A stretch of 64,000 bases of DNA from Escherichia coli (GTDB lineage: Bacteria > Pseudomonadota > Gammaproteobacteria > Enterobacterales > Enterobacteriaceae): the NCBI RefSeq assembly GCF_036507355.1, contig NZ_AP027877.1. One strand, written 5' to 3'. Numbering within the stretch: the stretch's first letter is position 1; every line of letters begins with the position of its first letter. The position numbers were made by a program, and so were the translations under genes. Shown here piece after piece: positions 10,881 through 40,059 of the stretch. The notes below the pieces were generated by a model that saw only the letters and a program-made list of their open reading frames with translations, was not told the origin of the DNA and made no database searches.

Positions 10881-10888
10881 TCCTTTTT

Positions 10889-10914: not shown

Positions 10915-10929
10915 GAATATTGTTCAGGT

Positions 10930-13389: not shown

Positions 13390-13403
13390 TTAAGGAAAAG
13401 ACG

Positions 13404-14135: not shown

Positions 14136-15193
14136 GATTCGCCAAAGGCGTGTTGCTCGCCATCTGTCTGATTTTTTTGCCGCTAAAAGCGGCGCTGGCG
14201 CTGAACTGCTATTTTGGTACCACAAACGGTGCTGTAGAAAAATCGGAAGCTATTATGCCCTTCGCCGTTCCGGCCAATTCCAAACCCGGCGATAAAATCT
14301 GGGAATCTGACGATATAAAAATTCCGGTCTACTGTGACAACAACACAAACGGTAATTTTGAAAGCGAGCACGTCTACGCCTGGGTAAACCCTTACCCCGG
14401 TATTCAGGATCCCTATTATCAATTGGGCGTAACCTATGAAGGCGTGGACTATGACGCAAGCCTTGGGAAAAGCCGCATCGACACGAATCAGTGCATCGAC
14501 AGTAAGAATATTGATATTTACACCCCGGAGCAGATCATTGCGATGGGCTGGCAAAATAAACTTTGCTCCGGCGATCCAACCGTTATGCACAAATCGCGGA
14601 CGTTTGTGGCGCGTATGCGGCTTTACGTTAAAGTTCGCGCCATGCCGCCCCATGATTATCAGAGCAAACTCAGCGATTACATCGTCGTACAGTTTGATGG
14701 CGCAGGCAGCGTGAACGAAGACCCTACCGCGAAGAGTCTGAAATATCACATTACCGGTCTGGAAAATATCCGCGTGCTGGATTGCAGCGTCAACTTTGCT
14801 ATCTCACCTGAAACCCAGGTCGTTGATTTTGGCCGATTTAACGTGCTGGATATTCGTCGCCATACGATGTCGCAGCAATTTAAAATAACTACAACCAAAT
14901 CACAAAACGACCAGTGTACCGACGGTTTTAAAGTCAGCTCTTCGTTTTATACCGATGAAACCCTTATCGACGAAGATAAATCACTGCTCATTGGCAATGG
15001 CCTGAAGCTTCGATTGTTGGATGAAAATGCCTCACCCTATACTTTCAACAAATACAGTGAATATGCCGATTTTACCAGCGACCTGTTAGTGTATGAAAAA
15101 ACCTACACGGCAGAATTGTCATCCACGCCGGGTACGCCCATCGACGTTGGTCCCTTTGATACAGTGGTACTTTTCAAAATTAACTACAACTGA
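14132..15193 (+). CDS. ybgO: Fimbrial adhesin-like protein (putative tip adhesin)
   Basis: 353-aa ORF with signal peptide ([23 protein letters not shown]); start overlaps the chaperone stop (ATGA); last gene of the chaperone-usher cluster. Confidence 0.85.
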
Positions 15194-15341
15194 TTTAGCC
15201 TATTGCCCTTTCCAGCCGGAGAGGGCTTCTTCGGTTAATTGCCAATTTTCCGGCTTTTATTGATTACCGTTATTTTTTCCATGCCCGGCATTCTTTATGC
15301 TGTATCGATACACCAAAGAGTAAATAATGAGGGAGCAAAGG

Positions 15342-16388
15342 ATGCCAGTTTTGCAGTGGGGAATGTTATGTGTGCTATCACTTCTCCTTTCTATTGGTTT
15401 ACTCGCGGTACATCTCCCGGCGGCATTATTACTTGGGCCGATGATCGCCGGGATCATCTTCAGTATGCGCGGGGTTACCCTGCAACTCCCCCGCTCCGCT
15501 TTTCTCGCCGCGCAGGCCATTCTTGGCTGCATGATTGCGCAAAACTTGACCGGTTCGATCCTGACCACGCTGGCGGTTAACTGGCCGATTGTGTTAGCTA
15601 TTTTACTGGTGACGTTGCTTTCCAGCGCTATCGTGGGATGGCTACTGGTGCGCTATAGCTCACTGCCCGGAAATACTGGTGCCTGGGGCTCCTCGCCTGG
15701 CGGCGCGGCGGCAATGGTCGCTATGGCGCAAGATTACGGCGCAGATATTCGCCTGGTGGCGTTTATGCAATATCTGCGAGTGCTGTTCGTCGCGGGGGCC
15801 GCGGTCCTGGTCACCCGCATGATGCTGGGTGATAACGCTGAAGCGGTTAACCAGCAAATCGTCTGGTTCCCGCCAGTGAGCATTAATCTCCTGCTTACGA
15901 TTTTGCTCGCGGTCGTTGCCGGTACGGCGGGATGCCTGCTGCGTCTTCCTTCCGGCACGATGCTCATCCCGATGCTGGCGGGCGCAGTGCTCCAGTCTGG
16001 TCAGCTCATCACCATCGAACTACCAGAATGGCTGCTGGCGATGGCGTATATGGCAATTGGCTGGCGGATTGGTCTTGGTTTCGATAAACAAATCTTACTG
16101 CGGGCACTACGCCCGCTACCGCAAATCCTGCTGTCGATTTTTGCTCTGCTGGCTATTTGTGCGGGTATGGCGTGGGGGCTGACCCGGTTTATGCACATTG
16201 ATTTTATGACTGCCTACCTCGCCACCAGCCCCGGCGGGCTTGATACCGTGGCGGTCATCGCCGCAGGGAGCAATGCCGATATGGCGCTCATTATGGCGAT
16301 GCAAACCCTACGCCTGTTCAGTATTTTGCTGACAGGGCCTGCCATTGCGCGGTTTATTTCAACCTATGCACCGAAGCGATCGGCCTAG
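15342..16388 (+). CDS. abrB: AbrB-family inner-membrane protein (putative regulator of aidB expression)
   Basis: Track ORF 15327..16388; start placed at [37 protein letters not shown]; polytopic membrane protein of 348 aa. Confidence 0.85.
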
Positions 16389-17176
16389 TGCTGGCAGCCA
16401 GGGCACCAGTAAAACGGGCGAGATGACAGCGTGGTTTTCTCAATGATGCCGCCACAACGTTCGCACGGTTCTCCATCACGATGAAAAACCTTAAAGCGGA
16501 ACAGCGCGCCGTGATGTTTTTTCTCATCCACCTGCCCCCGCGTAGCGTAGGAAAATCGAGGAATATCCAGTAACGCGTGTGCGAGTGCATCCAGTTGCGC
16601 CGCATTGAGATCTTTCGCTTTATGATTTCCAGTCACCCCAACCTGCCAGAGGATCTCCACCCGCAAATAATTGCCAAGCCCAGCCAGAAACGCCTGATCG
16701 AGCAGTAATCCAGCAAACTGACGGTTACGAAAGCGCGGCGACAATAACCGTTCTTTCACCACCTCCGGCGTCAGATTCGGATCCAGCACATCGGGACCAA
16801 CGCGTTGTAAAAACGGATGCGTGGTCAGTTGTTCCGGGGTCAACATCTCAATATCCGAGGCGCTATAAAGCAGAATGGTTTTGTCAGCCGTTTGCAGTTT
16901 TACCCGCAATACTCGCGTGGTCTGCGGCTCTTCGCCGGTATCAACCACGCGCCAGACGCCGTAAAGCTGATTATGGCTGTAGAGCGTTAAGTCGTTGGAA
17001 AAATGAGTTAACAGCGCCTTACCACGCGTTTCCACATGGGTAACGTGTTGACCGATAAGTGGTGATTGATAAGATTTTAACTGCGGGAAAGCAAACCAGA
17101 CATCAGTTAGTGGTTTGCCTTTGATCGCCGCCTCCAGGTTATCCGCTGCACGGCGGATCTCCGGGCCTTCAGGCAT
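16385..17176 (-). CDS. nei: Endonuclease VIII (DNA glycosylase/AP lyase)
   Basis: 263-aa [36 protein letters not shown]... with C-terminal zinc finger [26 protein letters not shown]. Confidence 0.96.
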
Positions 17177-17211
17177 GGTGATATCCTTTTTTCATTCTTT
17201 ATTAAACGGGG

Positions 17212-17946
17212 TTATGCTGCGACAACAATCCCCTTTTCGGCAAATGCAGAGCGTAGTCGGCGGGCGAACGCCAGTGCGTGCTCGCCGTCGCCATGCAGGC
17301 AGACCGTTTGCGCCGTGACCGTTGCCCATTCGCCGGTGATACTTTTGACTCTGCCGTGTTGCACCATCTCCAACGTTTGCGCCAGCGCCTGTTCTTCGTT
17401 TTCAATCAACGCGCCTGACTGGCTTCGCGGCACCAGCGAGCCGTCAGCCTGATAACCGCGATCGGCAAACACTTCCTCGCGCGTTGTCAGGCCATATTGC
17501 TTGCCTGCACGAATCAGCTCGCTTCCTGCCAGCCCAACGAGAACCAATGCTGGATCGCAAGCGTATACCGCTCTGGCGATGGCGTCTGCCAGTTGTGCTT
17601 CTTTCGCCGCCTGGTTGTACAACATGCCGTGCGGTTTGACATGACGCATTACGCCGCCTTGCGCACGGGTAATCGTTGCCAGCGCGCCAATTTGATACAG
17701 CGTCTGGGCGTAAACGGTTTCTGGCGGCAGCTGCATAGCGCTGCGACCAAAATTTTCCCTGTCGGGAAAACTCGGATGAGCGCCAATCGCGACACCATTT
17801 TTTATTGCTTCACGCACGCAAGCCTGCATGGTTTGCGCATCGCCTGCATGAAATCCACAGGCAATATTGGCAGAGGAAACCAGCGTTAATAGCTCTGCGT
17901 CGCTGGTGCAGCCTTCGCCCAGATCGGCGTTCAGGTCAATTTTCAT
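17212..17946 (-). CDS. pxpA: 5-oxoprolinase subunit A (LamB/YcsF family)
   Basis: 244-aa [47 protein letters not shown]... Confidence 0.93.
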
Positions 17947-18868
17947 TGTGCAGCCGCCACGCTAATTGTTCGAAATAACGTTGCTGATCTTGCCGCGCTT
18001 TCAGTGCCTCTTCCAGTGAACACTGGACAAAATGAATCGGCTGACCGAGCGGAATTTGCGCCAGATGGTACATATCAGCCTCAATGATACAGGCAATACG
18101 CGGGTAACCACCGGTGGTCTGTGCGTCGTTCATCAACACAATGGGCTGCCCGTTATGCGGCACCTGCACCACGCCCGGTAACAAACCGTGAGATAACAGT
18201 TCGCGATCGGTGGTGCGTTTTAAAATTTGCCCCTGTAAGCGATAGCCCATGCGGTTACTTTGCGAGCTAAGCTGCCAGGGCGAACGCCAGAATGCATCCT
18301 GCGAGGCGCGATCGAACTCATGATATTCCGGGCCCGGCAAGGCGCGAATGCGGTTGCCCCACAGCAGCTGTTTAACGCCCTGCGCTTCCATAAAATCACG
18401 CTTCGATTTGCCAATCGGGAGTCGGTCACCATCCTTCAGTAAACGGCCTTCCAGCCCGCCAATCCCCACTTTGAGATCGGTGCTGCATGACCCCATTACC
18501 GGCGGAACATCAATACCACCCGCGACCGCCAGATAACTGCGCATCCCGTGCTGCGGGCGTTTAAGCGTTAAACGCTGGCCTGCTTTCATCGGCAATCGCC
18601 AGCCGGTCCAGACGGCATTATCATCCAGCAGCGCTTCGCAACCGGCACCCGTCAGAGCAAACCCCCCATCAGTTTCGAACTCAACCGTTAACTGACCGAG
18701 CGTGATCTCCAGCGCGGGGGCATTGGCGTCATTACCCACCAGCAGGTTAGCAATGCGCAGCGCAGGCATATCCAGTGCGCCGCAGTGGCTGATACCCGAC
18801 TGGCGAAAACCGTGACGACCGCCATCTTGCACAGTGGTATACATGCCCGCACGAATAATCTTCAGCAT
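17936..18868 (-). CDS. pxpC: 5-oxoprolinase subunit C
   Basis: 310-aa [50 protein letters not shown]...; overlaps pxpA and pxpB as in a translationally coupled operon. Confidence 0.93.
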
Positions 18869-19518
18869 ACTCCCTCCTTTTGCGGTACAAAGCGCACGCT
18901 GTCTCCCGGACGTAATAAGATGGGTTCGTCACGCGCCGGATCAAACAGGCTGAGTGAGGTATGACCAATCAACTGCCAGCCACCCGGCGTTGCCAGCGGA
19001 TAAACACCAGTCTGCGGCCCGCCGATCCCGACAGAACCTGCCGGAACGAGCAAGCGCGGTTCAGCGCGCCGTGGCGTGTGTAGTTGTTCCGGCAAACTCC
19101 CGAGATACGGGAAGCCCGGTTGAAAACCTAAAAACCAGACCACGTATTCCACGGAGGAGTGCAATTCAACAACCTGTTTTTCGCTCAACCCGCAATGCGC
19201 CGCGACCACCGCCAAATCCGGTCCGCCTGCACCACCGTAAACCACCGGAATTTCAATAAAGCGAGACTCAGGTTCCAGGGCCTCGCTCTCCTCCCACCAG
19301 CGTTGCAAACGCTCTATGGCATCCAGCGCCAGCGACTCAGGATTACGCAAAATCACCGTGATATTGTTCATGCCGGGAATGGCTTCAACCACATTCGGCA
19401 TATCCACCAGACGCTGCGCCAGTCGCCAGATCCGTTTCTGGCTAGCCAGCGTCACCGGCGGTTCCAGTTCCAGCACTACCGCCGTTTCACCTATCAGATA
19501 ACAACGCGCTCGTTGCAC
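18862..19518 (-). CDS. pxpB: 5-oxoprolinase subunit B
   Basis: 218-aa [42 protein letters not shown]... Confidence 0.93.
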
Positions 19519-19540
19519 TTTCGATCCCTCTGATTATTCG

Positions 19541-20284
19541 TTATGCAGGATTAGGAATATCAATAAAGGTCACATCAAGATCGGTATTTTCATTCAGCCA
19601 CTCGCTCAATGCGCGAATACCACCGCGTTCAGTGGCATGGTGACCTGCAGCATAAAAATGCAATCCCTGCTCGCGGGCTGAATGAATGGTCTGTTCAGAA
19701 ACTTCGCCAGTAATAAAAGCATCCACGCCAAAACGCGCGGCGCTATCGATAAAACTTTGCCCGCCGCCCGTGCACCAGGCGACGCGCTGGACCACCTCAG
19801 GTCCGGTATCGCCACACCATAACGGCTTACGTCCCAGACGCGCTTCAATCCAGGAAGCCAGCTCCAGTCCCGGCACAGGCATGGTCAGTTCGCCCCACGG
19901 CACCAACGGCTCAATTTCGCCCATGACCGTAATCCCCAGTAACGCCGCCAGCTGTGCGTTATTGCCCAGCTCAGGATGTGCGTCAAGCGGCAAATGCCAG
20001 CCATACAGGTTGATATCATTCGCCAGCAACGTTTTTAAACGGTTACGCTTCATGCCGCGAATGACCGGAGATTCGCCTTTCCAGAAGTAGCCATGATGCA
20101 CAATGACCGCATCCGCGCCCAGACGCACTGCCTCATCGAGCAAAGCCTGGCTGGCAGTGACACCGGTAACAATTTTTTGCACCGTCTCTTTGCCTTCCAC
20201 CTGCAAACCATTCGGCGCGTAATCACTAATCGCCGCGCTGTTCAGTTTTTCGTTAATCAGTTGTTCCAGTTCGGTGTTTTTCAT
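19541..20284 (-). CDS. ybgI: Nif3-family dinuclear metal-binding protein (GTP cyclohydrolase 1 type 2 homolog)
   Basis: 247-aa ORF MKNTELEQLINEKLNSAAISDYAPNGLQVEGKETVQKIVTGVTASQALLDEAVRLGADAVIVHHGYFW... Confidence 0.93.
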   Translation of the reverse strand: MKNTELEQLINEKLNSAAISDYAPNGLQVEGKETVQKIVTGVTASQALLDEAVRLGADAVIVHHGYFWKGESPVIRGMKRNRLKTLLANDINLYGWHLPLDAHPELGNNAQLAALLGITVMGEIEPLVPWGELTMPVPGLELASWIEARLGRKPLWCGDTGPEVVQRVAWCTGGGQSFIDSAARFGVDAFITGEVSEQTIHSAREQGLHFYAAGHHATERGGIRALSEWLNENTDLDVTFIDIPNPA

Positions 20285-20371
20285 CTTCGCGCCTTCCGTA
20301 TTCTGATAGCTACACCGTTAACATAGCGTTACCTCGCCTGTTCGTCGATAGCCAATCTTTTGACATATTAA

Positions 20372-22036
<1,665 letters not shown>

Positions 22037-22050
22037 CAGGTCAAACCGAT

Positions 22051-22165
22051 GCCTGATGCGACGCTTAACGCGTCTTATCAGGTCTACGTATTTCCTGCAA
22101 TTTATTGAATTTGCACAAATTTGTAGGCTGGATAAGGCGTTTACGCCGCATCCGGCATCTGGGCT
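22051..22165. repeat. REP/BIME units between convergent dtpD and phr
   Basis: gcctgatgcgacgcttaacgcgtcttatcaggtctac and gtaggctggataaggcgtttacgccgcatccggca palindromic units. Confidence 0.6.
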
Positions 22166-22184
22166 CGATTGCCTGACGCGTCTG

Positions 22185-23603
22185 TTATTTCCCCTTCCGC
22201 GCCGCCTCATACGCTGCCAACGTTTGTACTCTCGCCTCTTTGTGATCGACTATCGGTTGCGGATAATCCAGCGTCACACCTGCTTTCTGCGCCCACTTCC
22301 ACGGCTCATGCACCGCTTTCCCCGGTACATTGCGCAGTTCCGGTAGCCACTGGCGGATAAACTCGCCTTCGCGGTCAAATTTCTCGCCCTGGGTTGTCGG
22401 GTTGAAAATACGAAAATACGGCGCTGCATCAGTACCCGTAGAAGCCGCCCACTGCCAGCCACCGTTATTGGCTGCCAAATCACCATCAATCAGCTGCGAC
22501 ATGAAATATCGCTCGCCTTCGCGCCAGTCGATCAACAAATCTTTCACCAGAAAACTGGCTGTAATCATCCGTAGCCTGTTATGCATCCAGCCAGTGCTAT
22601 TAAGCTGACGCATGGCAGCATCGACAATCGGGTATCCCGTTATGCCTTCCTGCCAGGCCTTTAAATGGGCGGGATTGCTTTGCCACTGTACACGATCCGT
22701 CCAGGCAATAAACGGACAATGTTTACACAACGAGGGGTAATATGTCATCAGATGACGGTAAAACTCGCGCCAGATCAGCTCATTAAGCCAGACACTACCG
22801 GCCCCACCGTCCAGCGCCTGCGGCTGTTCCGCCAACAGGCGATGCAAACACTGGCGAGGTGATAACCCGCCCGTTGCCAGGCTGGCGGACAAACGACTGG
22901 TGCCTTCCACTGCCGGAAAATCTCGTTGTTGCTCATATTCTCCGGCACCGTTCTGGCAAAACTGGCGTAATTGCGCAATCGCCGCTTTTTCTTCCACCGG
23001 GAAATGCGCAGTATCGAAAGACTGACGAGGATAATTCAGCGTAATGGATGGCGCGGGCTTTATCGATCCGCTACTACGAACTTTTGGTGCAGCGACGCAC
23101 TCCGGCATCCCTTCCCGCAGCCGTTTCAGCCAGGCATTCTTAAAAGGCGTAAAGACTTTGTACATCTCATGATTGCCGGTCATCACCGCGCCAGGCGGCA
23201 GGATCACGCTGTCATCAAATCCTTCACACACCACGTTACGCAGCGTTCTCTCAACCTGCACATCCCGCGCCCGCTCATTCACCTCATACTGATAGTTATA
23301 AAAAAGATGAGTAACGCTGTTTTCCGCGCACACCTGTTTAACTATTTCGACGCTGGCGGCAAAGTCATCCACTTCACGGAACAATAAAGGAATGCCTTTT
23401 TCCGCCAGCGCGATTTGTAGCCCGTTCAGTTGAGCATTGATAAGTTCAGCCTGACGCGGCGACATATTATGCGCCGCCCACTGGCGTGGTGTAGCGATAT
23501 ACAACGCCAGCACGCGTGCAGACGAATTGCGGCAGGCGGCAGCCAGCGCGAGATTATCGTGCAGACGTAAATCCTGGCGAAACCAGACCAGATGAGTAGT
23601 CAT
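22185..23603 (-). CDS. phr: Deoxyribodipyrimidine photolyase
   Basis: 472-aa ORF MTTHLVWFRQDLRLHDNLALAAACRNSSARVLALYIATPRQW...; full length. Confidence 0.96.
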   Translation of the reverse strand: MTTHLVWFRQDLRLHDNLALAAACRNSSARVLALYIATPRQWAAHNMSPRQAELINAQLNGLQIALAEKGIPLLFREVDDFAASVEIVKQVCAENSVTHLFYNYQYEVNERARDVQVERTLRNVVCEGFDDSVILPPGAVMTGNHEMYKVFTPFKNAWLKRLREGMPECVAAPKVRSSGSIKPAPSITLNYPRQSFDTAHFPVEEKAAIAQLRQFCQNGAGEYEQQRDFPAVEGTSRLSASLATGGLSPRQCLHRLLAEQPQALDGGAGSVWLNELIWREFYRHLMTYYPSLCKHCPFIAWTDRVQWQSNPAHLKAWQEGITGYPIVDAAMRQLNSTGWMHNRLRMITASFLVKDLLIDWREGERYFMSQLIDGDLAANNGGWQWAASTGTDAAPYFRIFNPTTQGEKFDREGEFIRQWLPELRNVPGKAVHEPWKWAQKAGVTLDYPQPIVDHKEARVQTLAAYEAARKGK

Positions 23604-24109
23604 AAAACTCCTGAATGGCGCAAGTTAATCACACGCGGCCAAAGTTCGAAATAACGCTGCCCTGAAAGCCAGGCGTCAGGATAAAGCGCCATATAGTGTT
23701 TGATACGCATCAGCGGCGCAAGAAGTGGTTGCTCGCCACGGCGATAACTGTCGATAAGCGCAGCCAGCTGCTGGCGTTCTGTGGAATCAATATGCGGGCG
23801 AAAATAACCCTGAACGTGCATCAAAACGTTGGTGTGATCGCGCGGGTTGGCGGGATGAGAAAGCAAAACAATTACGCGTTGGCGGTACTGGCTGTAAAAA
23901 TCATCCAGATTTTGCCACTGATGAATATCAGCCACAAACGGGCCAAGTTTGCGGTATTCCGGCTGAGAATGAGCCAGAAAGACGAGTTTATAGCGGCTGT
24001 GATAATCGAGAAGCGCCCCGCGCGTTAAGCCATGTTCTTTCAGTCGATGTAACTCATGAAGGGCGAAGATACGGATTAGGGTGCTGTCATCAAATCGTTG
24101 CTGATTCAT
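23600..24109 (-). CDS. ybgA: DUF1722-family protein, co-transcribed with phr
   Basis: 169-aa ORF MNQQRFDDSTLIRIFALHELHRLKEHGLTRGALLDYHSRYKLVFLAHSQPEYRKLG...; stop overlaps the phr start (ATGA). Confidence 0.9.
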   Translation of the reverse strand: MNQQRFDDSTLIRIFALHELHRLKEHGLTRGALLDYHSRYKLVFLAHSQPEYRKLGPFVADIHQWQNLDDFYSQYRQRVIVLLSHPANPRDHTNVLMHVQGYFRPHIDSTERQQLAALIDSYRRGEQPLLAPLMRIKHYMALYPDAWLSGQRYFELWPRVINLRHSGVL

Positions 24110-24339
24110 TACTGCTCCTGAGATATTAACAGGAGTAAGTGTAGACGTTGGGAAATGATTTTTGTGAAGTTAATCCGCTAGCAGGGCAAGATTACGAAAG
24201 CGCGCTCCCCGCAAGCAACTCATCAAGGTAGTTAATCATGGCTTAACACGATATTACGCCAGAAGTCACCATTTCCAAAACACAGCGCCGCTATAAAGTC
24301 GGCTATGTCAGAGCCCGCCACATAAACAGCAAAACCTAC

Positions 24340-24567
24340 ATGACCACGTACTACTCACGACACCCCTGCCTGAACCTTAAGGGCGACTGGCTGAAAGAGG
24401 CCGGATTTGATACCGGGCGGGGTGTCACGGTGAAGATTTCGGAGGGGTGCCTGACCATTATCGCTGACAGTGACGAGGTGCAGGAGCTGCGGGAGGAACT
24501 TTATCAGGTTAAACAGGTGGTTAAGGGGATACGGAGCGGGATGTTTAGTGTGCTGGACGAGAGTTAA
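24340..24567 (+). CDS. SymE-like small protein (SymE/AbrB-fold type I toxin family); possibly N-terminally truncated
   Basis: 75-aa ORF MTTYYSRHPCLNLKGDWLKEAGFDTGRGVTVKISEGCLTIIADSDEVQELREELYQ... resembles the SymE core (..[33 protein letters not shown]..). The in-frame upstream sequence still looks SymE-like but has no start codon before the stop at 24244. Confidence 0.6.
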   Translation: MTTYYSRHPCLNLKGDWLKEAGFDTGRGVTVKISEGCLTIIADSDEVQELREELYQVKQVVKGIRSGMFSVLDES

Positions 24568-24572
24568 ATAAT

Positions 24573-24612
24573 AAAAAAGCCGGGAAGATGTTATTTTCTT
24601 CCCGGCTTTTTT
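24573..24612. terminator. Bidirectional rho-independent terminator shared by the SymE-like gene (+) and the Rhs immunity gene (-)
   Basis: gccgggaag-(10 nt loop)-cttcccggc stem flanked by an A run on one side and a T run on the other. Confidence 0.75.
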
Positions 24613-24904
24613 AAAGTTTATTTATAGCTTGGTTAATTTCAAATAATAATGAGACAATATCTTTCGCAGAACCATTATAAATGGGGGTATCCCAATCAAA
24701 GTCCTTTATTAAACAAATATAAAAATTCCCATTTAAATTAAAAGATGGTCGCCACCCAACATCCAAAAGATACCCACCAGGATATTCAACTTGGAGCATA
24801 TCTTCCTTAAGTTCATCTCGCTGTTCATTAAGAGGGATGCTTTGTTTCAGGGAGAAGTCATTAAAAATTACATTCCCTTTTTTTCCTAAGAAATCAATGT
24901 TCAT
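24611..24904 (-). CDS. Putative Rhs immunity protein (cognate to the toxin tip immediately upstream)
   Basis: 97-aa AT-rich ORF MNIDFLGKKGNVIFNDFSLKQSIPLNEQRDELKEDMLQVEYPGGYLLDVGW...; its ATG overlaps the toxin stop (ATGA at 24901-24904). Position and composition are typical of rhsI genes; no family assignment was possible. Confidence 0.6.
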   Translation of the reverse strand: MNIDFLGKKGNVIFNDFSLKQSIPLNEQRDELKEDMLQVEYPGGYLLDVGWRPSFNLNGNFYICLIKDFDWDTPIYNGSAKDIVSLLFEINQAINKL

Positions 24905-26151
24905 GGTGTTGTTAGCCTTCGGAATTCATCAAGTGATATGGGATGTCCATGTATTGTCCCACCGCTAAGTTCAACTCGAACCCATTGAGATTCTTTACCC
25001 TCACTGGCCCCAATAACTTTCCCCATATCTTTTACTTTCCATGGTTTACCGTTGGTAACAGGTGTGCCTGTATTAAAAACATCGTATTCCAGCGTTTTAA
25101 TATCAATATCGGGAGAATATTTTGCCGGGCCTGATTTTGTTGATTTAATTATATCCTTCCATGATTTGTTTTTTGGAGGAAAATGTTTGTATCCATGATT
25201 TGTCCATTCAGGTTGCCCACACTTTAAACCTAACGGGTCGATCCACCCCAACGGATTCGGCGCGTATTGGTATAAATTTAATCCACCAAGCAGCCCTATC
25301 GGATCCGTTACCATGAACCGCCCGACATCCGGATCATAGTACCTGTGCAGATTGTAGTGCAGCCCCGTTTCCCTGTCGAGGTACTGTCCCTGGTAGCGCA
25401 GGTTCTGCTCCACCCTGCCGTGGTCCTTCTCCTGTATCGTGTTACCCCAGACCTGATACCCCGTCTCCCACACGATTCTCCCGTCGCTGTCCGTCATCTC
25501 TTCCGGCGCACCGTTCACATCCGTGTGAAAATACAGTATCCGGTTCGGGCCCTCTTTGCCTGCCTTATCCACCCGCGCCAGCGGTTCATAACTCCCCGGG
25601 TCCCTGTAGATGTACAGGCTGCCTGTTCCCTCCGGCCTGCTCTCCTGCGCCAGCCGCATTCCGTCCCATAAAAATTTTGTCCGGTTGTACGGTTTACCGT
25701 CAGGGCTGATGTGCTGTTTTTCCGTCCGCCTCCCCAGTGCATCGTACACATACCGGTATGCCCCCCGCGCTGTCGTCACTTCCACCATCCGGTGTTCCGC
25801 ATCATAACGGTAACTCTGCGTTCCGCTCCGGCCCTCCTTTTCCACCGCACGGCCAAATTCGTCATAACGGTAGTGCACACCACGGTAAGACATCAGCCGG
25901 TTGAACGGCACCACGCTGTTTTCTGCCGTGGCCCTTTCCCCCGCGCGCCTCCCCAGCAGGTTTCCCGCCGCGTCGTACTGCCAGCTCGCCAGATACCCCT
26001 CATCCTCCGAACGGCACGCCGTGATGCGCCCCGTGGGGTCGTAGAAGTAATCCGTTTCCCCCCGCCGGCTGTGCCGCGTCTTCAGCAGTTCATCCTCGCC
26101 ACTGTAGCTGTACTGCCGGTCCGTGAACGTCTCCGGTACCACCCCGCGCAT
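24901..26151 (-). CDS. Rhs protein, C-terminal part: end of YD-repeat core, PxxxxDPxGL motif and a 107-aa toxin tip. Same frame as the upstream fragment, separated from it by an in-frame TAG
   Basis: ORF contains YD repeats (YRYDEFGR, YRYDAEHR, YVYDALGRR) and the hallmark YYDPDVGRFMVTDPIGLLGGLNLYQYAPNPLGWIDPLGL, followed by a low-GC tip KCGQPEWTNHGYKHF...TIHGHPISLDEFRRLTTP. Frame arithmetic: the TAG at 26221-26223 is in frame with this ORF. Confidence 0.85.
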   Translation of the reverse strand: MRGVVPETFTDRQYSYSGEDELLKTRHSRRGETDYFYDPTGRITACRSEDEGYLASWQYDAAGNLLGRRAGERATAENSVVPFNRLMSYRGVHYRYDEFGRAVEKEGRSGTQSYRYDAEHRMVEVTTARGAYRYVYDALGRRTEKQHISPDGKPYNRTKFLWDGMRLAQESRPEGTGSLYIYRDPGSYEPLARVDKAGKEGPNRILYFHTDVNGAPEEMTDSDGRIVWETGYQVWGNTIQEKDHGRVEQNLRYQGQYLDRETGLHYNLHRYYDPDVGRFMVTDPIGLLGGLNLYQYAPNPLGWIDPLGLKCGQPEWTNHGYKHFPPKNKSWKDIIKSTKSGPAKYSPDIDIKTLEYDVFNTGTPVTNGKPWKVKDMGKVIGASEGKESQWVRVELSGGTIHGHPISLDEFRRLTTP

Positions 26152-26220
26152 CCCGCTGTATGTCTCCCTGCGCTTCAGCCGCCCGCCGGGGTCGTAAAGC
26201 TGCCGCGTGCTCAGTCGCCC

Positions 26221-28380
26221 CTAGCTTCTGAGCACCTCACGGTGCAGGTGGTCGCGCGTGAACTCGCTGATGACCTCCCGGTCCAGATTTATCTGCTGGA
26301 GATGGCCGCTGCCGTAGTACAGATGGCGCTGCGTTCTGCCGTCCGGAAAGGTGGTGGCAGTCCGGTTGCCCAGTTCATCGTACTGGTGGGTCAGGATGCC
26401 CTGCGCCGTCTCCTCGCTCAGCATCCGCCCCAGTCTGTCGTAGCTGAAGCAGATAACTTCCGGCGCGTCAGTTTCGTGCCGCTGGCGGCGGATTTCACCG
26501 CCCCGGTCCCCGGTGAACACCACTTCCGTGACCGCGTTCAGCGCGTTGTAGCGGTACGACTGGCGGCAGCCGTCCGGATTTATCTGCTCCGCCAGACGGT
26601 CCAGCACGTCATGGCGGAACCGGTAGCGTTCTCCGTTCTCGTTCGTGAGCGTGACCAGACGCCCGTAAGCGTCGTACCCGAACGCCGTCCTGCGCCCCAT
26701 CGCGTCCGTCCGGCTGCGCACCCGGCCCTGCCCGTCCCGCTGCCAGCGCGTTATCCTCCCCATCGGGCTGGTGTACTTCACCAGACTGCCCGCCGCGTCT
26801 GACTGGTAATTCACCGTGCGGCCGTCCGCCAGTATCACCTCCGTCAGATGACCGCTGTCGTCATACCCGTAGCGCGTGCTGTGGCTCTCCGCATCCGTCA
26901 TTCTGATAAGCCGCGTGCGTTCGTCGTAGAACCACGCCGTCTGCGAGCCGGAGCAGTCCGTGTGCCGCATGAGCTGCCCGTCTTCATTCCACTGGAGGTG
27001 TTTATTCCCCCCGCGCGCATCCGTTATCTGCACCACCTGGCCGTGGTGGTCATACTGATACCGGGTGTTCTGCTGCAGCGGGTCGGTCACGGCAAGAAGG
27101 TTGCCGCGTTCATCGTACACACAGCGCCAGGTGTTTCCCGCCGCGTCCACCTCCGTTTCCGGCTGGTGCCACACCGGGTGCCACTGTGTCTGCGCCACCC
27201 GCCCCAGCGGGTCGTGCGTCTCCGTGATATGCCCCTGCCGGTCATACACATAGCGCCATTTGCCGCCCTGAGGGTCGGTCATCCCCAGCAACAGTCGTTC
27301 TTCGTCGCTCCAGCGGAATGTCGTCACCTGTCCGGCTTCGTCCTGGTACGCCGTCACCTGATTCTGCGCATCCCACTGGTGATAACGTGTGCGCCCCAGT
27401 CCGTCCGTCACGCACAGCCTGCGCTGCGCCAGGTCCCACGCCAGCCGGTACTGTTCACCGCTGTCCGTGTGGTGCCCCGTCACCCGCCATGCCGCGTCAT
27501 CCGGACCGTCATACCAGCCCCACTGGTAATAATACCCTTCGCCGCCCGGCTGGCGGTGCAGCGTCATGCAGTGGTTTTCGTCGTAAGCAAACTCACGCAG
27601 CAGGTGCCCCGTGCTGTCGTACACGCCGTTCAGGTGGCCGGCCTCGTCATAGCTGTAACGACGCAGCAGTAAAGGTGCAGTCTCAGGGAAATGCTGATAA
27701 ATCTGTGTCACCCGCCGGGGATGCGCCGCCAGTTCGTAATACAGACGGATGCACGGACGCTGCTGTTCGCCGCTGATTTCCACAATGCGGCCCCGGTCGT
27801 CGTAGTACAGATTCAGACAGTTGCTGTTACGGTCGCCCAGCATTTTCAGCCGCTGGCGCTGCGGGTGGTGCGGGTCGCCTTCAAACAACCAGTGGATACC
27901 ATCATCGCTGCTGATAAGCCAGTGCCCCTGCTCACCACGCCTTACCGCCAGCCCTTCACCGGGGCTGTAAAACCCGCCCCCCGGCAGTACGGCTTCCATA
28001 TCCAGGCGTCGCCCCATACCCGACACAAAGGTCATGCAGTTTTCGTCTGCGCCACCCGGCAATACAAATGCCACCTGACACTGGTACACCTGCTCGTTAT
28101 CACGGAGAAACTGGCTCTGTATTTCCAGCCCTTGTTCACCGTCATTAATCCCTACCCGTGTTACCTGAACTGGCGTGTAGTGAAGATCCTTTACCTGTTT
28201 CTCCAGTTTTTTCATTTGCTGTTCAATCTGGGAGGCTAATTCGTCTCCTTCCTGCATCTGGCCCCGACTGATAATGAGTGCAGCGTCGGGATCGCTGAGG
28301 CGCAGCATATTAATAGTGCTGTCCTGAATAATATTCCCGGGAAAAGTTACAACAGTTTCATTGAGATAATACTCCGTCAT
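26221..28380 (-). CDS. Rhs protein, N-terminal part: DUF1795-like N-terminal domain plus YD-repeat core, ended by an in-frame amber codon (probable pseudogene or disrupted gene)
   Basis: 719-aa ORF. Core shows classic Rhs repeats (YQYDHHGQVV, YGYDDSGHLTEV, FGYDAYGRLV) and ends ...FTRDHLHREVLRS*, where intact Rhs proteins continue ...TRDRLHRETLRSFG.... Confidence 0.85.
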   Translation of the reverse strand: MTEYYLNETVVTFPGNIIQDSTINMLRLSDPDAALIISRGQMQEGDELASQIEQQMKKLEKQVKDLHYTPVQVTRVGINDGEQGLEIQSQFLRDNEQVYQCQVAFVLPGGADENCMTFVSGMGRRLDMEAVLPGGGFYSPGEGLAVRRGEQGHWLISSDDGIHWLFEGDPHHPQRQRLKMLGDRNSNCLNLYYDDRGRIVEISGEQQRPCIRLYYELAAHPRRVTQIYQHFPETAPLLLRRYSYDEAGHLNGVYDSTGHLLREFAYDENHCMTLHRQPGGEGYYYQWGWYDGPDDAAWRVTGHHTDSGEQYRLAWDLAQRRLCVTDGLGRTRYHQWDAQNQVTAYQDEAGQVTTFRWSDEERLLLGMTDPQGGKWRYVYDRQGHITETHDPLGRVAQTQWHPVWHQPETEVDAAGNTWRCVYDERGNLLAVTDPLQQNTRYQYDHHGQVVQITDARGGNKHLQWNEDGQLMRHTDCSGSQTAWFYDERTRLIRMTDAESHSTRYGYDDSGHLTEVILADGRTVNYQSDAAGSLVKYTSPMGRITRWQRDGQGRVRSRTDAMGRRTAFGYDAYGRLVTLTNENGERYRFRHDVLDRLAEQINPDGCRQSYRYNALNAVTEVVFTGDRGGEIRRQRHETDAPEVICFSYDRLGRMLSEETAQGILTHQYDELGNRTATTFPDGRTQRHLYYGSGHLQQINLDREVISEFTRDHLHREVLRS

Positions 28381-29163
28381 AATGATATGAGTCCTTTTTA
28401 ATTAATAAATTATTTAATGATGGTTTTTGTTTATTTTTAGTCATGAAAATGATACCCATCACTGCTTTACAGCACACTTTATCTTTCCAGCCATAATCAC
28501 TAATAATATTAAGCAATTACCAATATTTACACCGACCAGAGCGGATACATAGTTATGTATTTAACAATCCCAATATATTCACTATGCAAATAAAACCACT
28601 AGTAACAGACACGCTACCGCCTCCATATAAAAATGGACACCTTATAAAATTGTATCTTGCATAGAAAAAGCTGAAATATCGGATGCGTTTTAATTATCCA
28701 CTATAAGTCTATAAGCTTTTTATTAACAACAAAACATCTTATTGGATTAGATATGTTAACAATTAATTATTCTTAATATATCAATAAAGTATATATTACT
28801 CTCTTTACTATCTGCTTTTCTTGCGGTAGCGATACTAATAGCAAAATTCGGAATTTATTTAGATGCTGGAATTAGAAAAAGGGATGGCGGCCTTCTCACC
28901 TTACCCTGAAGTCTCAGGAAAGTGTGTAAGGAAGTATGCAACCTAACTGGAGATTTCTGATGATCTAGCCGCTTAGAGCGACAATGAAGGTGACCGCATC
29001 CTGGGTAGCCCTATGAAAGGATACTATTGAAACTTGATGCTAAAACAGTGATGAAATGAATAACACGATGGAAACGTCTTCCATGTTAATTATCATGGAA
29101 GACGTTGATGTAAAATACCTAAACCAGCCCCCTGATACGAGGCTGGCTTAAGCGCGCAGGCAA

Positions 29164-33524: not shown

Positions 33525-34097
33525 ATGAGTGGATTACGTCCGGCATTATCGACATTTATCTTTCTGTTATTGATTACTGGCGGCGTTTACCCGCTGCTGA
33601 CCACTGTGCTGGGGCAATGGTGGTTTCCCTGGCAGGCCAATGGTTCGTTGATTCGTGAAGGTGATACGGTGCGCGGTTCGGCATTAATCGGGCAGAATTT
33701 TACCGGCAACGGCTATTTTCAGGGTCGCCCGTCGGCAACGGCAGAAATGCCCTATAATCCACAGGCTTCTGGCGGGAGCAATCTGGCAGTCAGTAACCCT
33801 GAGCTGAATAAACTAATAGCCGCACGCGTTGCTGCATTACGGGCCACTAACCCGGATGCCAGCGCGAACGTTCCGGTTGAACTGGTGACGGCGTCGGCAA
33901 GCGGGCTGGACAATAACATCACCCCGCAAGCGGCGGCCTGGCAGATCCCACGCGTAGCGAAAGCGCGTAATCTCAGCGTTGAACAGCTCACGCAACTGAT
34001 CGCAAAATACAGCCAACAACCGCTGGTGAAATATATCGGCCAGCCGGTCGTCAACATTGTCGAACTCAATCTGGCGCTGGATAAACTTGATGAATAA
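33525..34097 (+). CDS. kdpC: K+-transporting ATPase subunit C
   Basis: Start placed at [41 protein letters not shown] (190 aa) inside track ORF 33501..34097. Confidence 0.93.
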
Positions 34098-36774
34098 CGA
34101 ACCCTTACGTCCCGACCCCGATCGTCTGCTGGAACAAACTGCCGCGCCGCATCGGGGGAAGCTGAAAGTTTTCTTCGGTGCCTGCGCAGGCGTCGGGAAG
34201 ACCTGGGCGATGCTGGCAGAAGCCCAGCGACTGCGGGCGCAAGGGCTGGATATTGTGGTTGGCGTGGTAGAAACCCACGGGCGGAAAGATACCGCCGCCA
34301 TGCTGGAAGGGCTGGCTGTTCTGCCGCCAAAACGCCTGGCGTACCGTGGGCGGCACATCAGCGAGTTTGATCTCGATGCCGCCCTCGCCCGCCGTCCGGC
34401 GCTGATCTTAATGGACGAACTGGCGCACAGTAATGCGCCAGGTTCTCGTCATCCTAAACGCTGGCAGGATATCGAAGAACTGCTGGAAGCTGGCATTGAT
34501 GTTTTCACAACCGTCAACGTTCAGCATCTGGAAAGTCTGAATGATGTGGTCAGCGGCGTCACCGGAATTCAGGTACGGGAAACCGTGCCCGATCCTTTTT
34601 TCGATGCCGCCGACGACGTGGTGCTGGTGGACTTGCCCCCGGACGATCTGCGCCAGCGGCTGAAAGAAGGCAAAGTCTATATTGCCGGGCAGGCGGAGCG
34701 CGCCATTGAACATTTTTTCCGCAAAGGCAATCTGATCGCCCTGCGCGAACTGGCACTGCGCCGTACTGCCGATCGCGTTGATGAGCAAATGCGCGCCTGG
34801 CGGGGGCATCCTGGCGAAGAGAAAGTGTGGCACACGCGCGACGCGATCCTTTTATGCATCGGGCATAACACCGGCAGTGAGAAACTGGTCCGCGCGGCGG
34901 CGCGGCTGGCGTCGCGGCTGGGTAGCGTCTGGCACGCGGTGTATGTTGAAACCCCTGCCCTGCATCGCTTACCGGAGAAAAAACGTCGGGCAATTCTCAG
35001 CGCCTTACGTCTGGCGCAGGAGCTGGGCGCGGAGACGGCAACACTTTCTGATCCAGCGGAAGAGAAAGCGGTAGTGCGTTATGCCCGTGAACATAATCTC
35101 GGCAAGATTATTCTCGGTCGCCCAGCCTCGCGCCGCTGGTGGCGTCGGGAAACGTTTGCTGACCGACTGGCGCGCATCGCCCCCGATCTCGATCAGGTGC
35201 TGGTCGCGCTTGATGAACCACCCGCCCGCACGATTAACAACGCGCCGGATAGCCGCTCTTTTAAAGACAAGTGGCGGGTACAGATTCAGGGATGCGTGGT
35301 TGCCGCCGCGTTATGCGCCGTTATCACCTTAATTGCCATGCAGTGGCTGATGGCGTTTGATGCCGCCAATCTGGTGATGCTGTATCTGCTTGGCGTGGTG
35401 GTGGTGGCGCTATTTTATGGACGCTGGCCTTCGGTGGTTGCCACCGTCATTAATGTGGTGAGTTTCGATCTCTTTTTTATCGCCCCACGCGGCACGCTCG
35501 CCGTCTCTGATGTGCAATATCTGCTGACCTTCGCGGTGATGTTAACCGTCGGGCTGGTGATCGGGAACCTTACTGCTGGCGTGCGTTATCAGGCGCGGGT
35601 AGCCCGTTACCGCGAACAACGCACACGGCACTTATATGAAATGTCGAAAGCTCTGGCGGTGGGCCGCAGTCCGCAGGACATCGCCGCCACCAGCGAACAA
35701 TTTATTGCCTCCACGTTTCATGCCCGCAGCCAGGTATTGTTACCCGATGACAACGGTAAATTGCAGCCGTTAACGCATCCGCAAGGAATGACGCCGTGGG
35801 ACGATGCCATCGCGCAGTGGAGTTTTGATAAAGGCCTGCCTGCGGGTGCGGGCACCGACACGTTACCCGGCGTGCCATACCAGATTTTGCCGTTAAAAAG
35901 CGGTGAGAAAACTTACGGGCTGGTGGTGGTGGAACCGGGGAATCTGCGCCAGTTGATGATCCCGGAACAGCAGCGCCTGCTGGAGACGTTTACGCTGTTA
36001 GTCGCCAATGCCCTTGAGCGGCTGACGCTGACCGCCAGCGAAGAACAGGCGCGGATGGCAAGTGAACGTGAACAGATCCGCAACGCTCTGCTGGCGGCGC
36101 TTTCGCACGATTTACGCACTCCGCTCACGGTGTTGTTCGGTCAGGCAGAAATCTTAACGCTCGATCTGGCAAGCGAAGGATCGCCCCACGCCCGCCAGGC
36201 CAGCGAGATTCGTCAGCATGTGCTGAACACTACCCGACTGGTGAATAATCTACTGGATATGGCGCGAATTCAGTCCGGCGGCTTTAATTTGAAGAAAGAG
36301 TGGTTAACGCTGGAAGAAGTAGTCGGCAGCGCGCTGCAAATGCTGGAACCGGGTTTATCGTCGCCCATCAATCTTTCTCTGCCAGAACCGCTGACCTTAA
36401 TCCACGTTGACGGGCCACTCTTTGAACGGGTGCTGATTAATCTGCTGGAGAACGCGGTGAAATATGCGGGTGCGCAGGCCGAAATTGGTATCGATGCCCA
36501 CGTTGAGGGCGAAAATCTACAACTGGATGTCTGGGATAACGGCCCCGGCCTTCCGCCAGGCCAGGAGCAGACGATATTTGATAAGTTTGCTCGCGGGAAT
36601 AAAGAGTCGGCAGTACCGGGGGTAGGGCTTGGACTGGCAATTTGTCGGGCGATAGTGGATGTACACGGGGGCACTATTACCGCGTTCAACCGACCGGAAG
36701 GTGGTGCCTGTTTTCGTGTTACACTTCCCCAGCAAACTGCCCCTGAACTTGAAGAATTTCATGAGGATATGTGA
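34090..36774 (+). CDS. kdpD: Sensor histidine kinase KdpD
   Basis: Start placed at [42 protein letters not shown] (894 aa); overlaps kdpC by 8 nt; histidine kinase HDLRTPL motif present. Confidence 0.95.
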
Positions 36775-37448
36775 CAAACGTTCTGATTGTTGAAGATGAA
36801 CAAGCTATTCGTCGCTTTCTGCGCACGGCGCTGGAGGGCGACGGTATGCGCGTCTTTGAGGCCGAAACGCTGCAACGCGGCTTGCTGGAAGCGGCAACCC
36901 GTAAGCCAGATTTGATTATTCTCGATCTCGGCCTGCCCGATGGTGATGGGATTGAGTTTATCCGCGACCTGCGCCAGTGGAGCGCGGTGCCGGTGATAGT
37001 GCTTTCCGCACGCAGCGAAGAGAGCGACAAAATCGCCGCGCTGGATGCCGGAGCGGATGATTATCTGAGTAAGCCGTTTGGCATTGGCGAATTGCAGGCC
37101 CGTCTGCGCGTCGCATTACGCCGCCATTCAGCCACTGCCGCGCCCGATCCGCTGGTGAAATTTTCCGATGTGACCGTCGATTTAGCCGCCCGCGTGATCC
37201 ATCGGGGCGAGGAAGAGGTGCATCTCACGCCGATTGAGTTCCGCCTGCTGGCGGTGCTGCTCAACAATACCGGAAAAGTGCTCACCCAGCGCCAGCTCCT
37301 TAACCAGGTGTGGGGGCCAAACGCGGTCGAACACAGTCATTATTTGCGTATTTATATGGGGCATCTGCGACAAAAACTGGAGCAGGATCCCGCCCGCCCC
37401 CGCCATTTCATTACCGAAACCGGTATTGGGTATCGGTTTATGCTTTAG
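36771..37448 (+). CDS. kdpE: Response regulator KdpE (OmpR family)
   Basis: 225-aa ORF (GTG start overlapping the kdpD stop) [39 protein letters not shown]...ITETGIGYRFML. Confidence 0.95.
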   Translation: MTNVLIVEDEQAIRRFLRTALEGDGMRVFEAETLQRGLLEAATRKPDLIILDLGLPDGDGIEFIRDLRQWSAVPVIVLSARSEESDKIAALDAGADDYLSKPFGIGELQARLRVALRRHSATAAPDPLVKFSDVTVDLAARVIHRGEEEVHLTPIEFRLLAVLLNNTGKVLTQRQLLNQVWGPNAVEHSHYLRIYMGHLRQKLEQDPARPRHFITETGIGYRFML

Positions 37449-37740
37449 GGGTTGAAATGCCGGATGCGGCGTAAACGCCTTATCCAGCCTACTCATCGTC
37501 CCGTAGGCATGATAAGACGCGTCAGCGTCGCATCAGGCATGGCTCTGTGAATAACGTCGGCAAAAACTGGAAAAAGACCCCGCCCTCGCCATTTTATTAC
37601 CGAAACCGGTATTGGGTATCGGTTTATGCTTTAGGGGCTGACTTGCCGGATGCGGCGTGAACGCCTTATCCAGCCTACTCATCGTCCCGTAGGCATGATA
37701 AGACGCGTCAGCGTCGCATCAGGCATTGGCACTCATGGCT
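37449..37740. repeat. REP/BIME cluster containing an imperfect tandem duplication of the kdpE 3' end
   Basis: Segment 37371-37542 recurs at 37561-37728 at roughly 90% identity, including REP units gccggatgcggcgtaaacgccttatccagcctac and gtaggcatgataagacgcgtcagcgtcgcatcaggca. Confidence 0.7.
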
Positions 37741-37747
37741 AAATATT

Positions 37748-38242
37748 TTAATGTGTATTTATCGCTTTCAACTCTTGCTGGCATTTTTCTGACTGGCAGC
37801 GTCGCAACTCAATAATCCCGACATGCATCATCGAGCCAATAAAGCCGCTTTCGCTGACATAATCCTCATTAACTATCGGTCGAGTGCCGGGCTTGCCCTG
37901 GCAAACCAGCATAAAAAATGAGGTGTAGCACTGCCAGCCGGGATTTAAACCGGCTTTTTCTTGTGCTGACATATCGTGAAGATAAATAAGTTCTTTTTCG
38001 TTCCCGCCTGACAACTGCCAGCGGCGGGTATTATCAGGTAAGTTATCGCTACAACAATTTGTCTTACACCGGGAAGGCGCAATATTTACCGCAATGCTAC
38101 CCTTTAACCCTCTGGTTTTATCTTTAGGGGTCAGTAACCAGTCGCCAGCTAATGATGATTGTTCAGGTTGGGCACATGCAGTCAGCAGTAGTGTGGCGGC
38201 AATGAATGTTACTCTTACGACCAGACTCCTTTTGGTCTTCAT
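37748..38242 (-). CDS. ybfP: Putative lipoprotein
   Basis: 164-aa ORF MKTKRSLVVRVTFIAATLLLTACAQPEQSS... with lipobox LLTAC; position next to pgm as in K-12. Confidence 0.75.
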   Translation of the reverse strand: MKTKRSLVVRVTFIAATLLLTACAQPEQSSLAGDWLLTPKDKTRGLKGSIAVNIAPSRCKTNCCSDNLPDNTRRWQLSGGNEKELIYLHDMSAQEKAGLNPGWQCYTSFFMLVCQGKPGTRPIVNEDYVSESGFIGSMMHVGIIELRRCQSEKCQQELKAINTH

Positions 38243-38292
38243 TTTGAATTCCCTTGAGCTATTCAGTTTGTTGGCAAAGTGCGCGTTGTTTT

Positions 38293-38333
<41 letters not shown>

Positions 38334-38371
38334 ATGCAAATTCAATATATTGCACCATCAGGCAGTCATAC

Positions 38372-38406
38372 GTAAAAAAGGGCGATCTTCCGACCGCCCT
38401 TTTTCT
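38372..38406 (-). terminator. Rho-independent terminator downstream of pgm
   Basis: On the minus strand: agggcggtcggaagatcgccct stem followed by a T run; also T-rich on the plus side. Confidence 0.7.
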
Positions 38407-38418
38407 TATTTAATGTGT

Positions 38419-40059
38419 TTACGCGTTTTTCAGAACTTCGCTAACAATCTCAACCGCTTCTTTCTCAATCTGCTTGCGATGTTCTTCACCGAGGAAGCTT
38501 TCGCAGTAGATCTTATATGCGTCTTCCGTGCCTGACGGACGCGCGGCGAACCAGCCGTTGTCAGTCATCACTTTCAGACCGCCAATAGAAGCACCGTTGC
38601 CCGGAGCAGCAGTCAGGCGCGCGGTGATCGGGTCACCTGCCAGGGTGCTGGCGCTCACCATTTCCGGAGACAGCTTAGACAGCGCCGCTTTTTGTGCGGA
38701 AGTCGCAGCTGCCTGCAAACGGTTGTAGCTCGGCGCACCAAAGCGTTTTGCCAGTTCGTTGTAGTGTTCCTGCGGGTTCTTACCGGTGACAGCGGTGATT
38801 TCCGCCGCCAGCAGACACATGATGATGCCGTCTTTGTCGGTGGACCACGGCGTGCCGTCGAAACGCAGGAAGGAAGCCCCTGCGCTCTCTTCGCCGCCAA
38901 AGCCGAAGCTGCCGTCGAACAGACCATCAACAAACCATTTGAAACCTACCGGGACTTCTACCAGCTTACGACCCAAGTCATTGACCACACGGTCGATCAT
39001 CGCAGAAGAAACCAGCGTTTTACCAACGGCAACATCTTTGCCCCACTGCGGACGATGCTGGAACAGGTAATTGATCGCCACCGCCAGGTAGTGGTTCGGA
39101 TTCATCAAACCTGCCGGAGTGACGATACCGTGACGGTCATAATCCGGGTCGTTAGCAAAAGCCAGATCGAACTTATCACGCAGTGCCAGCAGGCCCGCCA
39201 TCGCACACTCGGAGGAGCAGTCCATACGGATCGCGCCGTCTTTATCAAGGTGCATAAAGCGGAAGGTTTGATCGACCTGATTGTTAACGATGGTCAGGTT
39301 GAGGTTGTAATACTCGCCAATACGCTTCCAGTATTCGATACCGGAACCGCCCAGCGGATCAACGCCAAGCGTCAGGCCCGCTTTCTGAATCGCCGCCATA
39401 TCAACGATATCGGCCAGCCCTTCCACGAACGGCTGCACCAGATCCTGCTCTTTCACATGACCGGATGCCATCGCTTCGTCGAGGGAGATACGCTTCACGC
39501 CTTTCAGGCCATCGGCCAGCAGTGCGTTGGCTCTGTCTTCCACCACTTTAGTGACGTTGGTATCTGCCGGGCCACCATTTGGCGGATTGTATTTGATTCC
39601 ACCATCTTCCGGCGGGTTATGGGACGGTGTAATCACGATACCGTCTGCCAGCGGGCCACCTTTTTTATTGTGAACCAGGATGGCATTGGAAACGGCAGGC
39701 GTCGGGGTGAAGCCATTGTTTTCCTGCACAATAACATCTACGCCGTTCGCTGCCAGCACTTCCAGAACGGAAATAAATGCAGGTTCGGACAGGGCGTGAG
39801 TATCTTTACCCACATAGCAAGGGCCAGTGATGCCGTTTTTCGCACGTTCTTCAGCAATTGCCTGAGCGATCGCCAGAATGTGCGGCTCGTTAAAGCTGTG
39901 GCGCGCTGCACTGCCACGGTGACCGGAAGTACCGAATTTCACCGCGTGCTCCGCATTCCCTGCTTCTGGTTTCAGTACATAATATTGCGCCGTCAGTTGG
40001 GCGACGTTAATCAAATCACTCTGTTGTGCAGGTTGGCCTGCACGATTGTGGATTGCCAT
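38419..40059 (-). CDS. pgm: Phosphoglucomutase
   Basis: Start placed at [49 protein letters not shown] (546 aa) inside track ORF 38419..40110; phosphoserine loop TPSHNP present. Confidence 0.96.

Follow-up and report, generated by a model that had tools for sequence, protein, structure and literature searches.

An Escherichia coli kdpE-pgm junction without the speFL-speF-potE cassette

The 64-kb stretch of DNA analyzed here (the window) very probably represents an ordinary Escherichia coli with a cassette-free haplotype of the kdpE-pgm locus, which was either inherited or recombined in and is not the product of a recent deletion. The missing cassette consists of speFL, encoding an ornithine-sensing leader peptide, speF, encoding the acid-inducible ornithine decarboxylase, and potE, encoding the putrescine-ornithine antiporter. 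The original prediction that speF-potE is missing between kdpE and ybfP is borne out both by the alignment with K-12 and by tblastn of the entire window, and this absence is a real sequence feature, not a matter of chance.

Gene content of the locus and comparison with K-12

The locus opens with kdpD (34090..36774, + strand), an intact sensor kinase gene from the list of open reading frames (ORFs), which forms the left flank common to all haplotypes and has the same layout as in the annotation of strain A30. It is followed by kdpE (36771..37448, + strand), an intact response regulator gene (225 aa, stop codon TAG), and the right flank is formed by pgm (38419..40059, − strand), an intact phosphoglucomutase gene from the same list. 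Between them lies ybfP (37748..38242, − strand), which is intact and encodes a 164-aa lipoprotein of unknown function with the lipobox LLLTAC. Both kdpE and ybfP were found in the ORF list and by tblastn, their products showing 99% and 91% amino acid identity to K-12 KdpE and YbfP, respectively; no NCBIfam model matched YbfP.

At the nucleotide level, blastn gave 97.9% identity to K-12 over ybfA-kdpE and 99.1% over the segment from pgm to fur. Judging by the latter value, we assign the window to E. coli proper, and a cryptic Escherichia clade as its source was dropped on the same grounds. The best 20-kb matches of the window are merely 96.5–98.5% identical, a low average that is due to the divergence of the kdp and ybg/rhs segments. 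The first of two such segments outside the locus (10302-24233, ybgD to ybgA) comprises the fimbrial genes ybgDQPO, abrB, nei, pxpABC, ybgI, dtpD, phr and ybgA, and aligns with K-12 over 14 kb in one piece at 90.3% identity, with neighbouring segments at 98–99%; as far as sequence can tell, this suggests a divergent, recombined allele block. The second (24233-29160) has no K-12 counterpart, the rhsC-ybfD region (about 9.5 kb) occupying this place in K-12. It contains YD-repeat/Rhs-like ORFs of 719 aa (26221-28380, − strand) and 416 aa (24901-26151, − strand), followed by a 97-aa ORF (24611-24904, − strand) that could encode an immunity protein, and represents another variant of the Rhs element at the K-12 rhsC-ybfD site.

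In the annotation of K-12 MG1655 the gene order is pgm, ybfP, ybfG (a pseudogene), ybfI (a kdpE-like pseudogene), potE, speF, speFL and kdpE, just as the original prediction had stated it. The K-12 ybfP-kdpE interval (715907-721055), put at about 5 kb in that prediction, amounts to 5,149 bp and holds speFL, speF, potE, ybfI and ybfG. The two chromosomes have the same flanking genes, retain ybfP and have a remnant of the 3' end of kdpE in the kdpE-ybfP interval, but the spacer of the window (37449-37747) is only 299 bp long, in agreement with the earlier estimate of about 300 bp, and contains nothing except REP units and a decayed tandem copy. A scan of this spacer for promoters and terminators returned counts not above those for shuffled sequence.

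By blastn, the similarity to K-12 extends up to 37446 (the kdpE stop codon) and is resumed at 37744 (ybfP) to continue through pgm, and nothing in the window has nucleotide similarity to K-12 positions 716946-720822. A tblastn search of the whole 64-kb window (E≤1e-3) with K-12 SpeF (about 732 aa) produced no match, nor was there any in the 64 kb to K-12 PotE (439 aa) or to the SpeFL leader (34 aa); the KdpE and YbfP queries matched as expected. For YbfG the intact protein of strain PSS-12 was used as a query, because the K-12 copy is a pseudogene, and it found no match anywhere in the 64-kb window. Besides the cassette, ybfI and ybfG are thus missing from the window as well. Most E. coli, E. 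albertii and many Enterobacteriaceae have the speFL-speF-potE operon at this site, but none of the three genes of the operon (0/3) is found in the window.

On the other side of ybfP, the interval between its start and the pgm stop contains one REP unit (38293..38327), which has the same orientation as the REPs at 37458 and 37644, and a GC-rich hairpin terminator 3' of pgm (38374..38404, AAAAAAGGGCGATCTTCCGACCGCCCTTTTT). This interval is alignable with strains 042, Combat11I9 and A30.

REP units and a tandem duplication next to kdpE

The spacer had been predicted to consist of REP units and a duplication, and indeed four REP units and a 186-bp tandem copy could be located in it by a repeat search, the unit coordinates being set by regular expression. 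The first, BIME-like REP pair (37458-37492 and 37504-37539) adjoins kdpE; the second (37644-37678 and 37690-37725) forms the right half of the tandem duplication. The 35-nt unit occurs in three copies that are 97–100% identical, with a fourth at 45685. It has the hallmarks of REP/BIME elements, namely an imperfect palindrome of ~35 nt, a match to the consensus, many occurrences per genome and pairing; a query containing these REPs matched E. coli genomes in a median of 31 places each, and the units gave sub-threshold Rfam matches to naRNA4, a REP-derived RNA.

The two copies of the duplication (37368-37540 and 37558-37726) align over 173 nt with 91.3% identity and one 4-nt gap, at a spacing of 186 nt. 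This two-copy repeat was revealed by the repeat search and blastn, while Tandem Repeats Finder reported nothing in 37200-38500. The divergence of the second copy is uneven, its kdpE part being 79% identical over the first 33 nt (plus a 4-nt deletion) and its REP part 96%. The kdpE part, a non-coding relic recognized by the repeat search and tblastn (kdpE', 37558..37635, + strand), corresponds to the last 78 nt of kdpE including the TAG, carries the 4-nt deletion and has no start codon; 17 amino acids identical to the KdpE C-terminus were detected by tblastn. It is 91% identical to the end of the window's own kdpE, 93.6% to that of E. whittamii and 88.5% to K-12 ybfI. The junction between the copies (37541..37557, TGGCTCTGTGAATAACG plus T), as defined by alignment with 042 and Combat11I9, partly resembles the sequence after the second copy. 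Certain substitutions (CCAGCC, TACTCATC) are common to both copies of the REP pair and are not seen in 042 or Combat11I9.

The superficial likeness of kdpE' to K-12 ybfI might suggest a scar from a K-12-like ancestor, which would have undergone a recent, strain-specific loss of speFL-speF-potE-ybfI-ybfG (e.g. by recombination between the kdpE and ybfI repeats) with kdpE' as the remnant of ybfI. In K-12-type loci, 150 nt from the 3' end of kdpE do recur as a direct repeat (ybfI) beyond the cassette, and kdpE' and ybfI have the CCTCGCCATTTTATTAC motif in common. Moreover, this route can be seen operating in five genomes (hits H186-H190), where the cassette is gone and kdpE is joined directly to ybfG (DUF2625). 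The fusion is clean in CUWW10 and GF4-3, which is consistent with kdpE/ybfI repeat recombination, and has an IS1 at the junction in ET846, MB10 and KL53, of which MB10 keeps a 70-nt remnant overlapping speFL; all five descend from the K-12-type locus by separate recent losses.

However, the product of this route is kdpE-ybfG-ybfP, and the window, where no YbfG homolog was detected in 64 kb, has no such fusion. The flanks differ, too: ybfI (150 nt) is preceded by a potE-terminator-like sequence and ends in TGA followed by the ybfG leader, whereas kdpE' (78 nt) has a REP pair before it and, exactly like the window's own kdpE, a TAG and a REP pair after it. No cassette or ybfI-flank sequence is left at 37541-37557, and 250 other genomes share the junction but not the extra copy, with an alignable form in E. 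whittamii. On these flanks, the reading of kdpE' as a K-12 ybfI left behind by a deletion was rejected, and it does not qualify as a ybfI ortholog. Together with the TAG end and the substitutions shared by the two REP pairs, they point instead to a tandem duplication that took place locally, in the cassette-free haplotype. The recent-deletion reading is thus largely refuted, and we regard it as highly improbable.

An additional observation concerns the segment between potE and ybfI in K-12-type loci. The pgm terminator recurs there in altered form, the sequence normally adjoining ybfP on its upstream side (CTGTTTGTTGGCAAA...) is found again, and part of a REP lies in inverted orientation (6872-6946 and 5908-5947 in the K-12 locus, L001; 7164-7260 in locus L010). 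Taken by their sequence, these features look like a scar of the insertion of a kdpE'-ybfG-ybfP module beside the cassette.

Distribution and age of the cassette-free haplotype

In the sample surveyed (5,426 complete RefSeq E. coli genomes), kdpE and pgm without the cassette between them were found in 354 genomes (6.5%, about one in fifteen). The contiguous arrangement kdpE-REP-ybfP-pgm accounts for 252 of the 5,426, counted as genomes covering at least 80% of window positions 36771-38420 in one place, and these include the reference strain 042; the difference (354 vs 252) leaves ~102 genomes with neither cassette nor ybfP, such as TB06052 and GDSC2227PM. At least 80% of speFL-speF-potE is present in 5,038 of the 5,426 genomes, 388 fall below this threshold and 293 have no match at all. 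In 81 genomes the best cassette match is only 60–80% identical, which, given the speF-core query, is irrelevant to the count of empty loci.

The cassette and ybfP occur together (the K-12 type) in roughly 2,200 genomes, as estimated from two-place counts with a chimeric query. The remaining genomes have the cassette without ybfP, as in B2, O157 and O104 strains, with one terminator shared by potE and pgm. The order kdpE-speFL-speF-potE-pgm is carried by E. coli strains of B2, E and B1 and by E. albertii. The kdpE-pgm interval thus takes four common forms, in addition to the rare kdpE-ybfG fusions. The cassette itself is variable: the K-12 speF-potE allele (L001) and those of B1, B2 and E strains (L007, L008, L009) differ by 5–6%, and the 90–95% identity band comprises 2,526 genomes. 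In most genomes of this band, the first ~222 nt after kdpE (speFL region included) are left unaligned to K-12 by megablast, with speFL annotated there.

Overall, the cassette-free haplotype is ordinary and widely shared, being already represented in hundreds of public genomes. The original prediction had proposed a strain-level difference; this holds for the absence relative to K-12 and fails insofar as it would make the absence private to the strain, as 6.5% of the complete E. coli genomes have the haplotype, which extends to further Escherichia species. Our literature search found no paper describing the polymorphism of the kdpE-pgm locus itself. Of its individual genes, speF is among the metabolic genes with the highest pseudogene frequency in a pangenome of 2,377 E. 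coli genomes (PMC13322260), which implies that it is often dispensable, and for ybfP, an accessory gene, enrichment in phylogroup A has been described (PMC5422975).

The closest relatives of the window at this locus are A30 (NZ_CP028745.1, from baboon faeces) and NZ_OZ282453.1, which are 98.8% identical to it over 13.6 kb and 98.5% over the 1,650-nt query (36771-38420). Their arrangement equals that of the window, including the 186-bp duplication, which no other genome among the 5,426 has. From about 37460 on, through the spacer and ybfP, the alignment with A30 shows no differences. On the other hand, the kdpE allele and the first bases past its stop codon are not the same as in A30 and OZ282453, and the flank is therefore a recombinant mosaic. 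The ybfP gene is 100% identical in nucleotide sequence to that of A30 and OZ282453 and 98% to that of Combat11I9. It is unusually diverse for E. coli (92.5% identity to K-12 and about 94% to 042, with the adjacent pgm at 99%).

Strains 042 (NC_017626.1) and Combat11I9 likewise have kdpE, a REP pair, ybfP and pgm without speFL, speF, potE, ybfI and ybfG, and share with the window the breakpoints, one at the stop codon of kdpE and the other at the terminator of pgm. The window conforms to this 042 type (kdpE stop, REP pair and convergent ybfP, with no ybfG or ybfI). The differences are that the two strains have just one REP pair after kdpE, lacking the 186-bp tandem copy (window 37541-37726), that the ybfP allele of 042 is about 6% apart at the nucleotide level, and that Combat11I9 has TGA followed by G where the kdpE stop of the window is TAG.

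These comparisons bear on two further explanations. The junction is rich in repeats (REPs and the kdpE 3' duplicate), the collapse of which during assembly might have cost the 5-kb segment. However, an identical arrangement is shared by two independent complete genomes (A30 and OZ282453), and 250 further genomes, the finished reference 042 among them, have the arrangement without the 186-bp repeat; the chance of an assembly artefact is practically negligible.

Alternatively, the cassette might have moved elsewhere in the genome (to another chromosomal site or a plasmid), in which case there would be no metabolic difference at all. The part of this genome that is visible is the 64 kb, and plasmid-borne cassette matches do exist, albeit only two in the whole collection. 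This possibility was probed with a chimeric query composed of the window ybfP and a 480-nt core of speF. K-12 strains gave two places with this query, whereas the five genomes with the closest ybfP alleles (A30, OZ282453, Combat11I9, L26 and 23CRST011) gave one place each, namely ybfP, their chromosomes being devoid of the speF core. Neither ybfP nor the speF core was found in 111 genomes, which agrees with the ~102 genomes of the kdpE-REP pair-pgm form. Furthermore, the genomes contain a median of 1 cassette match each, and the 354 empty loci and five fusions nearly account for the 388 genomes without an 80%-complete cassette, which fits loss. Since the relatives lack the speF core, the counts fit loss and plasmid-borne matches number only two, we see very little room for relocation.

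The breakpoints of the two locus states are sharp and coincide in all the sequences that were aligned. In the cassette-free sequences compared, kdpE ends in TAG and GG followed directly by a REP (except in Combat11I9, with TGA and GGGG), while in the cassette-bearing ones it ends in TGA and A, followed by the AT-rich speFL leader region. The window and the cassette-bearing genomes cease to be similar at the kdpE stop codon, and similarity comes back at the pgm terminator (blastn breakpoints 38365-38374), and the loci of B2, O157 and O104 strains, which bear the cassette without ybfP, have the same hairpin terminator between potE and pgm. Thus, either a REP pair of ~125 nt or a REP pair, ybfP and a REP occupy the place of 4.3 kb.

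The smaller of these two forms was found in TB06052, GDSC2227PM, E. whittamii and SCPM-O-B-8794, the latter being a species representative that is labelled E. coli but belongs to a divergent lineage (94–95% identical to the window). The succession of TAG, REP, linker, REP and terminator is alignable base for base among the four. Like the window, they have no cassette, a junction of TAG and REP and the same pgm terminator; unlike it, they lack ybfP, the REP on the kdpE side running straight into the sequence past the REP upstream of ybfP. This minimal form would fit either the removal of ybfP by REP-REP recombination or a REP-associated gain of ybfP. Because the same junction occurs in E. whittamii, the cassette-free haplotype must be old in Escherichia.

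The comparison also covered 80 species representatives of Enterobacterales, anchored on KdpE. The cassette adjoins kdpE in 29 of them, and in 39 kdpE and pgm are adjacent without it. Both states are present within Escherichia, Citrobacter, Enterobacter and Phytobacter; Serratia, Pantoea, Dickeya and Yersinia showed the empty one only. None of the 80 representatives yielded a YbfP or a YbfG. Pseudocitrobacter faecalis DSM 27453 has a SpeF-like gene (81% amino acid identity; L030, 2981-5476) between kdpE and pgm, with PotE and SpeFL undetected at this locus; its cassette may be partly eroded or an alternative one.

Origin of the locus states and their meaning

Our preferred scenario is that the kdpE-pgm junction of E. 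coli segregates two independent modules, speFL-speF-potE and ybfP, the latter sometimes accompanied by ybfG and the kdpE-like relic ybfI. Of the second module the window carries ybfP only, and it lacks the first, the REP pair after the TAG standing in place of the cassette. This cassette-free haplotype could have been inherited, or gained when the flanking core genes kdpDE and pgm recombined with homologous DNA. A segment of 186 bp (the last ~80 nt of kdpE and the REP pair) would subsequently have been duplicated in the sublineage of A30 and OZ282453, and the kdpE part of its second copy would have decayed after the duplication. As to its ultimate origin, the cassette-free haplotype may derive from a deletion in an Escherichia ancestor, from import or from a retained pre-insertion state.

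A more ambitious and rather speculative extension is that the kdpE-pgm junction is a long-lived presence/absence polymorphism, with a cassette-free haplotype older than the split of E. coli and E. whittamii that persists next to the speFL-speF-potE haplotype in several enterobacterial genera, kept by balancing or niche-dependent selection on inducible ornithine decarboxylation or by repeated exchange through the conserved flanks. If this is true, the K-12 pseudogene ybfI would be a scar left when the two haplotypes fused.

From the established roles of SpeFL, SpeF and PotE, the strain represented by the window is predicted to lack the low-pH, ornithine-induced decarboxylation of ornithine and the PotE-mediated exchange of putrescine and ornithine. 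It would presumably rely on constitutive routes and on transporters encoded beyond the window. The predicted loss concerns a minor acid-response and polyamine route and is of little import beyond the description of the strain, with a modest value for E. coli pangenome annotation or for the use of speF/potE as markers. What the locus offers to annotators is a set of exact breakpoints, REP pairs at every junction and a pattern of presence and absence that recurs across genera, and the comparative picture would account for the odd K-12 pseudogene ybfI.
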